A DNA stretch of 43,530 nt from a virus (lineage: Duplodnaviria > Heunggongvirae > Uroviricota > Caudoviricetes), in IMG/VR virus record IMGVR_UViG_2734482773_000003, positions 1 through 43,530 of that record. One strand, given 5' to 3'. The notes under the pieces are model-generated. The model did not search any database. It worked only from the letters and a program-made list of their open reading frames with translations, and had not been told where the DNA came from. The translations under genes and the position numbers were made by a program. The number at the start of each line of letters is the position of its first letter. The first letter of the stretch is position 1. Positions 8,721-18,063 of the stretch are shown piece after piece.

Positions 8721-9263
8721 ATGCATTCACTTGCGTATCAACACAATACCGGAATACACCCGGGAGCGATGATAAACCGCGCTCAACCTAAGGCGGCGCC
8801 TGACCACGAAAAGATCCGCGATGCGGTCCGGGCATGGTCTTCGGCGCTGGACAATCAGGACGTCGTTTCGGCACTGATCATCAACGAATACCGGGAGCAG
8901 GGCGGGACCGCCATCAGCTTTCCTGACGACATCAGCCGTGCGCGCCAGAAGCTGTTCCGCTTCCTGGATAACCGTTTCGACTCCGAACAGTACCGCGAGA
9001 ACGTGCGCCAGCTGACACCCGCAATCATGTCCGTATTGCCGCTGGAGTACCGCAACCGCCTGGCGCCGCAGAACGACACGATGTCGCTGATCGCTTCTGC
9101 GATGAAAGAGTGTGCTGAAGCTAAACAGGCCGTGCTTTTGGACGCCCCAGAGCATCAGAAGCTGAAAGAGGTAAGCGAGGGTATAGCTTCGCTGTTCCGC
9201 CTCATGCCGGAGCAGGTAGGCCCACTGATGACGATGGTCACGTCGATGCTGGGGGTTATGTGA
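8721..9263 (+). CDS. YdaT-like regulatory protein (CII-position analogue)
   Basis: ATG 8721 with AAGGGA upstream; LTPAIMSVLPLEYRNRL region resembles Rac-prophage YdaT (from memory); sits immediately after cro. Confidence 0.55.
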   Translation: MHSLAYQHNTGIHPGAMINRAQPKAAPDHEKIRDAVRAWSSALDNQDVVSALIINEYREQGGTAISFPDDISRARQKLFRFLDNRFDSEQYRENVRQLTPAIMSVLPLEYRNRLAPQNDTMSLIASAMKECAEAKQAVLLDAPEHQKLKEVSEGIASLFRLMPEQVGPLMTMVTSMLGVM

Positions 9264-9352
9264 TGGGAAGTATCAAAAATGGCGAAAGCCAGTCTGCGCG
9301 AACAGAACTGGCCTTCAGATGCAAATCGTGTGCACTCATTGCAGGAGGAATA

Positions 9353-9499
9353 ATGGCAAAAAATCCACGCTATTACCATACCGCTGTACATAAAAACATA
9401 GCCCGCGACCGCTTCATCCGCTCGGTTAACCCGATTGTGGCAGAGAAGATGCGCGCCATCCTGGAAGAATTGAAACGTAAGGAGAGTGGCCGTGGGTAA
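9353..9499 (+). CDS. small basic protein (48 aa)
   Basis: ORF 9260..9499; internal ATG at 9353 preceded by AGGAGG 6 nt upstream; the earlier in-frame starts lack a Shine-Dalgarno match. Confidence 0.4.
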   Translation: MAKNPRYYHTAVHKNIARDRFIRSVNPIVAEKMRAILEELKRKESGRG

Positions 9500-10391
9500 C
9501 GTATCCAATTTAGCCGAAGCCAGAGAGGCCAGAAGGCTCCAGAAACCGCGCACGAATGACGGTAAGGGGTTTGCCTTGCTGCACCGTAAAATTATGGATG
9601 TGCCGTTCTACAAGGACGCTGAGGCGGCTCATTTATGGGTTCACCTGCTCCTGCGCGCTAATCACGAACAGACACTGGTATCGACTGATGTTGGCGATGT
9701 GATCTGCGAGCGCGGCGAGTTCATCACCGGGCGTAACACGCTGGCAATGGAAACGGGTTTGACCGCTGATCGCGTTAAATCACTGCTCCGTAAATTCCAG
9801 AATCTGGGCATGATCACCACCAAATCGAACAACCGTTTTACTGTTCTAAAAGTGGTCAAATATGACGAATATCAGTCAAATTTTTGTCCAGCCGATGTCC
9901 AGCCAGTGTCCAGCGCAAACGCAGTAATAACAATGCCTGTGGAGGATGTGTGTCCAGCCGATGTCCAGCCGGTGTCCACAGATAACAATATATTAAATAA
10001 CTTACTACCTAAAGGTAGTAAGTATGTCGCAAATGACCAGAACCCCGCTGAAGAGAAAAAGTCCCGTTTGTCATGCGATGAAGTATGGCAATGCCTGAAA
10101 GACGAACTGCCTGAAGCCCGGGGATGGAGATGCCTCACTGATGAGCGACGCAATCTGATCCGCACCTTCTGGGGTAAGGCTAACAAGATTGCCCGCAACC
10201 TGGACGGCAAGCCGATGGATATGGACGGTTTCAGAAGCTATCTGCGATATATCGCTCAAAACTGCCGCTGGATGCTTGAAGACCGACCAGACCAGAAATC
10301 CGGGAAAACCTGGCGCCGCATGAAATTCGATAAGTTCCTGACCGAAAAGCTCTACATCGAAGTGCGCGAGGGGGATCGTGATGACCGCTGA
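9486..10391 (+). CDS. phage replication initiator (O-like)
   Basis: N-terminal GFALLHRKIMDVPFYKDAEAAHLWVHLL matches the phage replication-protein-O N-terminal pattern; iteron array lies inside the gene; stop overlaps the helicase start; start may be GTG 9486 or GTG 9492. Confidence 0.7.
   Translation: MAVGNVSNLAEAREARRLQKPRTNDGKGFALLHRKIMDVPFYKDAEAAHLWVHLLLRANHEQTLVSTDVGDVICERGEFITGRNTLAMETGLTADRVKSLLRKFQNLGMITTKSNNRFTVLKVVKYDEYQSNFCPADVQPVSSANAVITMPVEDVCPADVQPVSTDNNILNNLLPKGSKYVANDQNPAEEKKSRLSCDEVWQCLKDELPEARGWRCLTDERRNLIRTFWGKANKIARNLDGKPMDMDGFRSYLRYIAQNCRWMLEDRPDQKSGKTWRRMKFDKFLTEKLYIEVREGDRDDR
9885..10025. repeat. replication origin: six 9-bp iterons (TGTCCAGCC, 11-bp period) plus AT-rich segment
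   Basis: TGTCCAGCC-like repeats at 9885, 9896, 9907 and 9951, 9962, 9973, followed by AT-rich ataacaatatattaaataacttactacctaaaggtagtaagtat with an inverted repeat; encoded as the duplicated CPADVQPVS peptide. Confidence 0.6.
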
Positions 10392-11814
10392 ATTCATGGC
10401 TGTGCCACAAAACCTCGAAGCGGAGCAGAGCGTTATCGGTGGCCTGCTGCTGGATGATGACAACAGCGAGCGAGTCCAGAAGGTTCTGGCGATGCTCAAG
10501 CCTGAGTCGTTCTACAGCCGACCTCACCAGCTGATCTTTGCCGAGATGCGCCAGATGTTCCGCGACAACAAGCCAGTCGATGGTCTGACATTGTTCGACG
10601 CGCTTGAAGGAAAAGGGCTCGCGGAGCAGGTAGGTGGCTTTGCTTACCTGGCGGAGATAGCCAAGAACACTCCAAGCGCAGCAAACATCGTGGCATACGC
10701 AGAATCAGTCCGGGAAGCCGCAATGGAGCGCTACGGTATCAACCGTCTGACCAAAGCTACTGAGCTGCTGTATTCCCGCAACGGTATGAGCGCTACGCAG
10801 AAGTATGAGGCCATTCAGGGTATCTTCACCCAGCTCGCAGATCATTCAAAAACCGGAAATCGTCGTGGGTTGCGGTCGTTCGGCGAGGTTATGGATGACT
10901 GGGTAGCAGATCTGGAAAAACGATTTGACCCCTCAGGCGAACAGCGCGGCATGAGTACCGGTATCCCGTCACTCGACCGGCTGCTGGCGCCGAAAGGTCT
11001 GGTTAAAGGCTCTCTGTTCGTAATTGGCGCAAGGCCAAAAATGGGCAAAACAACCCTGTACGGGCAGATGGCGATCAACTGCGCGGTTCGTGAGAAAAAG
11101 CCGGCGCTGATGTTCAGCCTGGAAATGCCAGGCGACCAGATCCTCGAAAAACTGGTTGGTCAGAAGTCGGGCATTAACCCGAGCATTTTTTACATGCCCG
11201 CCACGGATGATGCCGATGACCAGTATCAGGGCGACTACGACGGCGACTTTAAGAAGGCGATCGCAACAGCCGGGCGGCTGAGTGAAATCGACATGCTGTA
11301 CATCGACGACACTCCTGGCCTGTCACTGGCGCATATCGTTACCGAATGCCGTCGAATTAAGCGCGAGAAAGGCTGCGTAGGCATGATTCTGGTTGACTAC
11401 CTGACGCTGATGACCGCCGAAAAAGCAGACCGTAATGACCTGGCCTACGGGATGATCACCAAAGGGTTGAAGAACCTGGCCAAAGAGCTTGGCTGCGTCG
11501 TCGTGCTGCTGACTCAGCTCAACCGCGAACTGGAGAAGCGAGTGAATAAACGCCCGTTGCCGAGTGATTCCCGCGACACAGGACAGATTGAGCAGGACTG
11601 CGACTACTGGGTTGGTATCCACCGGGAAGGTGCTTTCGATGACAGCGTGCCGCCGGGCGAAACCGAGTTAATCCTGCGACTCAACCGCCACGGCAGTACC
11701 GGAACGGTTTATTGCAATCAGATTAACGGGGCAATTTACGACACAGACCAGCATGCCGCCGCCGCAGAACGTCGCGGGCGCGAGCAGCAGCCGAAAAAGA
11801 AAGGGGGCTTCTGA
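10381..11814 (+). CDS. replicative DNA helicase (DnaB-like)
   Basis: ORF 10378..11814 (GTG then ATG at 10381, GAGGGGG upstream); N-terminal DnaB domain (LEAEQSVIGGLL), Walker A GARPKMGKTT, helicase C-terminal motifs. Confidence 0.9.
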   Translation: MTAEFMAVPQNLEAEQSVIGGLLLDDDNSERVQKVLAMLKPESFYSRPHQLIFAEMRQMFRDNKPVDGLTLFDALEGKGLAEQVGGFAYLAEIAKNTPSAANIVAYAESVREAAMERYGINRLTKATELLYSRNGMSATQKYEAIQGIFTQLADHSKTGNRRGLRSFGEVMDDWVADLEKRFDPSGEQRGMSTGIPSLDRLLAPKGLVKGSLFVIGARPKMGKTTLYGQMAINCAVREKKPALMFSLEMPGDQILEKLVGQKSGINPSIFYMPATDDADDQYQGDYDGDFKKAIATAGRLSEIDMLYIDDTPGLSLAHIVTECRRIKREKGCVGMILVDYLTLMTAEKADRNDLAYGMITKGLKNLAKELGCVVVLLTQLNRELEKRVNKRPLPSDSRDTGQIEQDCDYWVGIHREGAFDDSVPPGETELILRLNRHGSTGTVYCNQINGAIYDTDQHAAAAERRGREQQPKKKGGF

Positions 11815-17987: not shown

Positions 17988-18063
17988 GCTGATTTAGCTC
18001 AGTAGGTAGAGCGCCTGCCTTGTAAGCAGGATGTCGGCGGTTCAACTCCGTCAATCAGCACCA
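17988..18063 (+). tRNA. tRNA-Thr (anticodon UGU)
   Basis: 76-nt cloverleaf folded by hand: 7-bp acceptor stem GCTGATT/AATCAGC, D-arm GCTC/GAGC, anticodon stem CCTGC/GCAGG with loop CTTGTAA (U33, anticodon TGT, A37), T-arm GGCGG/CCGTC with TTCAACT loop, encoded CCA. Confidence 0.8.

Follow-up and report, generated by a model that had tools for sequence, protein, structure and literature searches.

Positions 9885–10023 of the DNA analysed here, a 43,530-nt stretch from a Caudoviricetes record in IMG/VR (IMGVR_UViG_2734482773_000003; the whole stretch is hereafter called the window), very probably constitute the theta-type replication origin of a lambdoid Enterobacter/Klebsiella prophage, situated in the linker-coding part of the prophage's own initiator gene. 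This reading draws on the anatomy of the element, on constraint at the DNA level, on an architecture conserved among relatives, on co-variation between the repeats (iterons) and the N-terminal domain of the initiator, and on compensatory change in a palindrome, all of which are observed directly. A preliminary description, made from the letters alone, had already placed a replication origin inside an initiator gene at this point, and it finds support in the match of the gene to PHROG 345, the adjoining helicase gene, the rep_origin features of phages HK620 and Sf6, the DNA constraint, and the iteron/N-domain co-variation. The layout itself is already known, being marked as putative in HK620 and Sf6; the iteron specificity class is new. 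The parts of the origin and of the two genes concerned are as follows, with residue numbers counted, here and throughout, from GTG 9486 (301 aa).

9885–9915, plus strand: iteron triplet 1, made up of TGTCCAGCC (9885), TGTCCAGCC (9896), and TGTCCAGCG (9907), with starts 11 bp apart
9916–9950, plus strand: inter-triplet spacer of 35 nt, which sets the triplets 66 bp apart (6 × 11 bp, 22 codons)
9951–9981, plus strand: iteron triplet 2, made up of TGTCCAGCC (9951), TGTCCAGCC (9962), and TGTCCACAG (9973; core TGTCCAC)
9980–9999, no strand: AT-rich stretch, candidate DNA-unwinding element, 2 G/C in 20 nt (10% G+C)
10000–10023, no strand: perfect palindrome, ACTTACTACCT-AA-AGGTAGTAAGT, with 11-nt arms, a potential hairpin or cruciform
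9492–10391, plus strand: O-like replication initiator gene, 299 aa from GTG 9492 or 301 aa from GTG 9486
9732–9854, plus strand: region coding for a predicted winged helix-turn-helix (wHTH), with a helix at aa 83–90, the recognition helix at aa 94–106 (K98, S99), and a beta wing at aa 110–123
10074–10367, plus strand: region coding for the helical C-terminal domain (aa 197–294), the presumed helicase-interaction domain, with an AlphaFold2 predicted local distance difference test (pLDDT) score of 75–88
10378–11814, plus strand: DnaB-like replicative helicase gene, overlapping the end of the initiator gene and of the kind annotated as P22 gene 12 or HK022 P

Six TGTCCAGCC-type repeats at helical-turn spacing had been claimed inside an O-like gene, and they are borne out as two period-11 triplets within the open reading frame (ORF) 9486–10391. 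The first triplet reads TGTCCAGCC-GA-TGTCCAGCC-AG-TGTCCAGCG and is followed by the 35-nt spacer; the second reads TGTCCAGCC-GA-TGTCCAGCC-GG-TGTCCAC and is followed by AGATAACAATATATTAAATA and then by the palindrome. All units have 9-bp cores, an 11-bp period, and a single orientation, without internal inverted symmetry. The 43.5-kb window contains four exact copies of TGTCCAGCC (9885, 9896, 9951, and 9962), always on the plus strand and always within the origin segment, compared to 0.36 expected, and none of 100 shuffles contained four. The two remaining in-register units carry one mismatch (TGTCCAGCG at 9907) or are truncated (TGTCCAC at 9973). The third unit of triplet 1 is TGTCCAGCC in most close relatives, and the last unit of triplet 2 ends in ..CCAC/T-A in every iteron class. 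When up to one mismatch is allowed, TGTCCAGCC is not enriched over the whole window (12 versus 10.1 expected), and no second cluster of the 9-mer is present elsewhere in the window; the iteron signal is a local phased cluster of exact copies. Tandem Repeats Finder places the two period-11 arrays at 9885–9914 and 9951–9978, and a repeat search of the window finds a 33-nt unit that recurs 66 bp downstream with 91% identity.

The array is fitted to the reading frame in the following manner. Eleven is not divisible by three, so that each unit of a triplet is translated in a frame of its own (TGT CCA GCC GAT GTC CAG CCA GTG TCC AGC), and the peptide has no repeat corresponding to the unit. What the peptide does contain is the nonapeptide CPADVQPVS, which the translation gives twice, just as first described (aa 134–142 and aa 156–164), and this duplication arises only because 66 bp equal 22 codons. 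Three units make 33 bp, or 11 codons; hence the array as a whole stays in frame, and the addition or removal of an entire 66-bp unit leaves the frame intact.

Variation among close relatives was measured as pi in 82 ungapped sequences (94%–100% protein identity, from IMG/VR, CobraSix, and Chronis) that represent 70 gene haplotypes, with the following values.

Rest of gene: 0.094 at third, 0.015 at first, and 0.004 at second codon positions
Iteron cores: 0.0066 at third codon positions (~14-fold below the rest of the gene)
9980–10025 (AT-rich stretch and palindrome): 0.0053 at third positions (~18-fold below the rest of the gene) and 0.0025 at all positions
2-nt spacers between cores: 0.149
35-nt inter-triplet spacer: 0.11 overall, and 0.09–0.13 by codon position, about equal at all three

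The rest of the gene shows the usual coding pattern, and in the origin segment this pattern is reversed, with the inter-triplet spacer being the most variable stretch of the entire initiator gene. These comparisons indicate that selection acts on the DNA rather than on the peptide: cores, AT-rich stretch, and palindrome are conserved as DNA, and the peptide is free to change.

The same architecture is found in much more diverged phages. Searches with tblastn returned full-length homologues of 42%–55% identity in HK620/HK630, HK022, VT2-Sakai and other Stx phages, ST64T, and Sf6, as well as in Pantoea PA-1, Cronobacter ENT47670, and Klebsiella ST101-KPC2phi6.1; for instance, identity is 51.8% to the O gene of HK630 (HK620-type) and 42.5% to Sf6 gp43, over 91%–100% of the length. 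At the same position in the gene, all share three units at 11 bp, a 66-bp offset, three further units, an AT-rich stretch, and a palindrome. Comparing the initiator genes of related prophages had been proposed as a check on the repeats, and in these homologues repeats do stand at the same place, each phage type having its own iteron word.

This window: TGTCCAGCC
HK620: (G/T)TACCAGCA; TTACCAGCA
PA-1: TTACCAACA
Sf6, ST64T, ENT47670, and SW-70: TGTCCAACG
KPC2phi6.1 and Erwinia Eho59: (G/A)TGCCAACA

The word of the window, TGTCCAGCC, differs from the TTACCAGCA, TGTCCAACG, TTACCAACA, and TGCCAACA of the described members. The GenBank records of HK620 and Sf6 (AF335538 and NC_005344) mark the same spot as rep_origin, with the Sf6 note reading 'putative; repeat region reminiscent of the phage lambda origin; similar to phage HK620', and the database origin features of both phages are labelled putative or similarity-based. 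A DnaB-like helicase is the next gene in HK620, Sf6, ST64T, and PA-1 also. In the window and its relatives, the two-triplet array directly follows a KYD(D/E)(Y/F)Q motif, and, whatever the iteron class, the triplets of nearly all family members stand 66 bp apart. The AT-rich stretch lies at the same place in all diverged homologues.

We used the anchor AAATAYGAYGAWTWTCAG, which encodes the KYD(D/E)(Y/F)Q motif, to scan IMG/VR, and pooling the results with the other loci compared gave 192 usable genes with 116 distinct origin cores. The scan added two iteron classes (AATCCAAxG and TGTCCGxAG), and more distant genes in it have other arrays of 11-bp period (GCGGGACAGCA, ACAACAAACGR, and CTAACCAACAA). 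Among distant relatives on IMG/VR contigs and metagenome-assembled genomes (L206, L118, L192, L217, and L263, including Yoonia and Sneathiella), the motif takes the form KYD(D/E)YQ and is immediately followed by four to five GCGGGACAGCA or GCGACGCAGCA units, again with an 11-bp period. This suggests that the design of an origin placed after a winged helix reaches well beyond enterobacterial phages. Near-identical DNA was seen in only two plasmid records.

The number of 66-bp units varies in nature, always with the reading frame kept. Such changes are occasional: one unit has been lost in an Sf6-like locus (L182) and in window-type proteins (P0002 and P0008), leaving one-triplet initiators of 277 aa, and one has been gained in an HK620-like locus (L110), which has three triplets and 321 aa. 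A 246-aa protein (P0028), which probably comes from a defective prophage, is without AT-rich stretch and palindrome and without the first part of the C-terminal domain.

Iteron word and N-terminal domain are strictly paired: each of 59 distinct N-terminal domains (59/59) goes with a single iteron class. The first ~30 residues have been exchanged between classes (ST64T versus Sf6) with no change of iteron word. Residue 99, the sixth of the recognition helix, is an alignment column that separates the classes cleanly. Four classes have T at core position 3 (xGTCC and AATCC), and their residue 99 is serine, apart from a single sequence with alanine; the three classes with A or G at that position (TTACC and xTGCC) have tyrosine. 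Residue 98 is glutamine for TTACC and lysine for TGCC. The N-terminal domain of the window is nearest to the TTACCAGCA class (62%) and then to the TGCCAACA class (56%), the other serine classes being at 43%–50%. Since a serine domain is here closest overall to a tyrosine class, the split at residue 99 is not pure phylogeny. Five more TGCC-class genes, taken from bacterial genomes, all have K-Y; in a scan of a genome collection with the anchor motif, most matches were due to chance, seven of 120 being real family members, and no new class bearing on the serine/tyrosine rule appeared. We offer this rule as a hypothesis, drawn from only seven classes, that fits the direct read-out expected of a recognition helix.

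Downstream of the iterons, the G+C content falls to 0.225 in the 40 nt from 9980 to 10019. The preliminary description had spoken of a roughly 45-bp AT-rich tract with an inverted repeat; both are present, but the AT-rich part measures only ~20 bp and the remainder is the 24-bp palindrome, with arms at 10000–10010 and 10013–10023 and a 2-nt loop. Folded as single-stranded DNA, it gives a hairpin of −8 kcal/mol (z = −4.2), with only four G-C pairs in the stem. At least 17 palindrome variants occur in the family, all with perfect arms of 9–11 nt and a loop of 2–4 nt, and among the variants compared the palindrome mostly starts 48–52 nt past the start of the second triplet. In an alignment of 18 diverse origins, compensatory changes have altered both sides in all ten of the ten stem pairs; 96.7% of cells are paired, compared to 60.8% in shuffles and 29%–48% when the partner is slid by one to three columns, and the covariation score is 0.87 versus 0.21. 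Drift of the sequence with pairing kept argues for a structure, be it a hairpin or cruciform in DNA or a stem in RNA, and points to selection on the palindrome for that structure and not for a fixed protein-recognition sequence. One palindrome core (CTAATAC-TRAC-GTATTAG) is found almost unchanged both with DnaB-helicase-type and with lambda-P-type partners, and so is not specific to one helicase system.

The palindrome and the C-terminal domain move as one block and are combined with different iteron classes, which places a mosaic joint in or near the AT-rich stretch. Three loci (L105, L120, and L194) combine TGTCCAGCC iterons with a palindrome and C-terminal domain of the ENT47670 type, and another (L156) combines TGTCCAACG iterons with a window-type C-terminal domain and a near-window palindrome. 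In Erwinia phage Eho59 (L091, 729–1679), a TGCC-type N-terminal domain and origin are joined to a different C-terminal domain and followed by a lambda-P-type loader. Pectobacterium phage ZF40 (L092, 459–1229) has only the C-terminal domain in common with the window family; there it sits on an unrelated helix-turn-helix (HTH) N-terminal domain, with a different repeat (PVPPKSTAPVP, twice).

Taken as a replication origin, the segment could work in the following way, in which initiator binding, unwinding, and helicase loading are steps that we infer. The N-terminal winged-helix domain of the initiator would bind the six 9-bp TGTCCAGCC cores. With the cores 11 bp apart head to tail and the triplets 66 bp apart, the bound protomers would lie on about the same face of the helix, so that a higher-order complex becomes possible. 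Such a complex would strain and open the adjoining 20-bp AT-rich stretch, and the palindrome next to it could form a hairpin or cruciform once the DNA was strained or single-stranded. The C-terminal domain of the initiator would then recruit the DnaB-like helicase that the phage itself encodes in the next gene.

Several observations weigh against this account. The AT-rich stretch, at only ~20 bp, is half as long as that of lambda. Natural variants with one triplet exist (P0002; P0008, on 17 contigs; and L182), and either six sites are not strictly needed or those prophages are defective. The association of iteron word with N-terminal domain is in part physical linkage, as the region coding for the N-domain is directly followed by the iterons, and in part shared ancestry within classes. 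The AlphaFold2 model of the initiator is moderate (mean pLDDT 63.5, from a shallow alignment), and Foldseek comparison with the PDB returns winged-helix DNA-binding domains only (such as CodY, SmtB/ArsR, MarR, and CRP), at weak E-values of 0.015 or above. A literature search found no published functional test of an HK022/HK620/Sf6-type origin or its relatives.

The array might instead be mainly regulatory, serving autoregulation, titration or handcuffing, or the exclusion of related phages, with replication starting elsewhere in the prophage. Plasmid iteron arrays also serve copy control; ectopic copies of ori-lambda, and specifically of its iterons, block the growth of lambda and of phages of the same replication type (PMC4488673, PMC3349717); in lactococci, phage origins supplied in trans confer a phage-encoded resistance (PER) phenotype (PMC8965321); and the start site of DNA synthesis is placed here by sequence comparison. 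Yet an AT-rich stretch and a palindrome of conserved structure invariably come after the array, which is the usual make-up of an unwinding site, the window has no second 9-mer cluster, and both position and layout match the experimentally mapped origins in lambda O (PMC5043065) and in lactococcal organizer genes (PMC8965321). A mainly regulatory role seems quite improbable. The replication-origin reading also leaves room for such effects, in that the iteron word may be an incompatibility determinant, which would fit both the strict N-domain/iteron pairing and the lambda work.

For the palindrome and its T-rich tail, a different role can be conceived, chiefly as an intrinsic terminator of leftward (antisense) transcription or as a hairpin within the initiator mRNA. 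In the minus-strand reading, TATTTAATAT comes after the palindrome, and the site was picked up by a scan for terminator-like sequences; the geometry of a hairpin followed by the T-rich complement of the AT-rich stretch is the same in HK620 and Sf6. The compensatory covariation, moreover, fits an RNA stem equally well as a DNA hairpin. However, terminator-like sites around the origin are at chance level (two found versus 2.6 expected), the four-G-C-pair stem is followed by an interrupted T-run, a promoter scan around the origin gave nothing above chance and no promoter-like site nearby, and P22, with an unrelated initiator N-terminal domain, also has an inverted repeat after its AT-rich stretch. 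We judge a terminator or RNA role to be quite improbable. A search by eye for DnaA boxes and IHF sites, made with no formal test, revealed nothing convincing.

That the repeats are no more than a low-complexity peptide linker, duplicated by slippage or unequal crossing-over and devoid of any role in DNA, is very improbable indeed: the segment does encode a predicted disordered linker, and the 66-bp unit does vary naturally between one, two, and three triplets, but an 11-bp period that puts each unit in a different frame, third codon positions in the cores ~14-fold less diverse than in the rest of the gene beside a spacer that is free at all positions, and peptides that are wholly different between classes with the 11/66-bp geometry kept all count against it.

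Within the reading as a replication origin, two further and doubtful proposals are that the family may have a simple, readable recognition code and, separately, that the palindrome may be a single-stranded DNA hairpin selected for its structure. Under the code, core bases 2 and 3 (GT, TA, and TG before CCA) would be set by one residue or two at the beginning of the recognition helix, K98-S99 in the window and Q-Y or K-Y in other classes. The hairpin, inherited with the helicase-interaction module, may be an entry or priming signal for helicase or primase and not a passive part of the unwinding region. If the code is true, the replication-specificity (incompatibility) groups of lambdoid prophages would be predictable from sequence and perhaps reprogrammable.

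The domain structure of the initiator agrees with the placement of the origin. AlphaFold2 gives a pLDDT of 70–84 over the winged-helix part and about 30 over aa 131–193, a predicted disordered linker between the winged-helix N-terminal domain and the helical C-terminal domain; the origin encodes aa 134–180, within this linker. PHROG 24933 spans aa 182–301, and the C-terminal domain presumably contacts the helicase. PHROG 345, 'replication initiation O-like', is a match for the initiator as a whole (E = 1.9e-68), PHROGs that carry the label 'DnaD-like helicase loader' are matched by its N-terminal half as well, and a scan of Pfam and NCBIfam gave nothing above threshold. A profile of the N-terminal domain gave only sub-threshold matches to PDB sequences, with the same stretch aligning to wHTH regulators and to the N-terminal domain of DnaD. 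As the Foldseek matches are generic winged-helix regulators, no specific structural relative of the N-terminal domain can be named.

The nearest sequenced phages are Enterobacter phage CobraSix (97% DNA identity over the initiator gene) and Klebsiella phage Chronis (92.5%); they have the iteron word of the window, and their records carry no origin annotation. Protein identity to the O proteins of HK620, HK022, and VT2-Sakai is ~51%. The true start of the initiator is likely GTG 9492, judging from an AGGAG at 9480–9484, 7 nt before it, and from homologues that begin MGNVSNL or MSNVSNL. The helicase gene that follows matches Pfam DnaB_C (E = 1e-58), the DnaB N-terminal domain (E = 8.6e-32), and PHROG 19 (E = 1.3e-132). 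Upstream lie a minus-strand cI-like S24 repressor gene, a cro-like HTH gene, a YdaT/CII-like gene, and a small ORF; this gene order is the standard early-right operon of a lambdoid phage.

Two of these upstream genes have features of their own. The gene in the cII position (8721–9263, plus strand) matches Pfam YdaT_toxin (E = 5e-28) and PHROG 163, 'CII-like transcriptional activator', and at 180 aa is far larger than the cII/c1 genes of HK620, Sf6, and P22 (279 nt, about 92 codons). The small ORF between it and the initiator (9260–9499, plus strand) is extended in the window to 79 aa and overlaps the initiator start. Its C-terminal part matches PHROG 1913, labelled 'tail protein', a name that RefSeq has put on P22 orf48 (L094:850–996) and HK620 hkaW. 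Because the ORF sits in the early-right operon, a tail function is implausible, and the label looks like a propagated mis-annotation. The prophage window also contains a tRNA-Thr gene (anticodon TGT; 17988–18063, plus strand), which was the only match in an Rfam scan of the window; an oop-like RNA was not detected in that scan.

If correct, the assignment locates the replication start and the specificity determinant of a common lineage of Enterobacter, Klebsiella, and Salmonella prophages that includes CobraSix and Chronis. At least 262 related loci are present in IMG/VR, and a protein search found 1,674 related proteins. It also supplies a simple rule for annotation: a KYD(D/E)(Y/F)Q motif, 3 + 3 units with an 11-bp period and 66 bp apart, an AT-rich stretch, and a palindrome. 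The iteron classes that can now be listed number at least seven, and they probably determine between which co-resident prophages cross-activation or titration of initiators can occur. The pairs of wHTH domain and iteron would form a compact natural set for studying how DNA-binding specificity diversifies when it is locked in a reading frame.

Of the known systems, the origin of lambda was the one that the preliminary description saw mirrored here. Ori-lambda is part of gene O: four iterons, each a 19-bp inverted repeat to which O dimers bind, stand ahead of 40 bp of AT-rich DNA (PMC5043065). The likeness holds for the layout, in that lambda, P22, and the window all have the origin inside the initiator gene, between the DNA-binding and the partner-binding domains, and iterons ahead of an AT-rich stretch. 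It does not extend to the N-terminal domain, which is not of the lambda/P22 O family, or to the repeats, which are six 9-bp direct-repeat cores rather than four 19-bp dyads, followed by ~20 instead of 40 bp of AT-rich DNA. In lambda, P recruits the host DnaB, whereas the window phage encodes its own helicase. In lambda, too, an inverted repeat lies to the right of the AT-rich region.

P22 resembles the window in two respects: in its annotated origin the AT-rich stretch is directly followed by an inverted repeat, and its gene 12 encodes a DnaB-like helicase. The repeats of its origin, in gene 18, are different and longer. The window initiator has no match to TIGR01610 (phage_O_Nterm) or to Pfam Phage_rep_O, whereas P22 gp18 matches TIGR01610 at E = 2e-24, and BLASTP aligns the window initiator with gp18 over the last 54 C-terminal residues only. 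P22 gene 18 is therefore ruled out as the closest model, as gp18 belongs to the lambda O N-terminal family and its iterons differ.

The replisome organizers of Gram-positive phages are functional analogues, with an N-terminal DNA-binding domain followed by direct repeats in the same gene. In the lactococcal phages, TP901-1 ORF13 and Tuc2009 Rep2009 bind direct repeats inside their own genes; these repeats are the origin and confer resistance in trans (PMC8965321). The window initiator reaches only E = 0.039 and 14.4 bits with PF09681 (Phage_rep_org_N), below the cut-off of 23.3, has no TIGR01714 match in NCBIfam, and contains no DnaD/DnaB_2 C-terminal domain by Pfam or NCBIfam. A curious likeness was seen in Streptococcus thermophilus phage 20617 (L003:1473–1530; HG424323.1, about 9188–9245), where TGTCCAGCC-GA-TGTCCAACC-AG-TGTCCAAC, with an 11-bp period, matches triplet 1 of the window at 27 of 28 nt (96%). 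That array is preceded by two inverted copies of TTGGACA and lies at the junction between an ORF (e8) with a PF09681/TIGR01714 organizer N-terminal domain and a DnaD-like 'rep' ORF. Shared recognition across phyla is unsupported, since hhalign of the proteins is insignificant and the recognition-helix residues differ, and the match is probably convergence or coincidence.

Short direct repeats in helical phase are in the style of plasmid iterons, and iteron plasmid origins, as defined, likewise have such repeats beside an AT-rich region (PMC5043065). In iteron-controlled plasmids the direct repeats are bound by winged-helix Rep proteins; no plasmid Rep-family Pfam match was found in the window initiator. 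Typical plasmid iterons are about twice as long as the units of the window, which are much shorter, and the window origin, unlike theirs, lies inside the initiator reading frame.

The closest counterparts are HK620, HK022, VT2-Sakai, Sf6, and ST64T, which have full-length homologous initiators (42%–52%), the same layout, a DnaB-like helicase gene next, and an orf48/hkaW-like ORF upstream. The window differs from HK620 in its recognition helix (K98-S99 versus Q-Y) and in its iteron (TGTCCAGCC versus TTACCAGCA), and from HK620/Sf6-type phages in the sequence of the palindrome and the subtype of the C-terminal domain. An iteron word of its own makes a separate class within the HK022/HK620/Sf6 family and is no ground for exclusion from it; the origin described here, judged by these comparisons, is best filed as a new iteron-specificity class of the HK022/HK620/Sf6-type origin.

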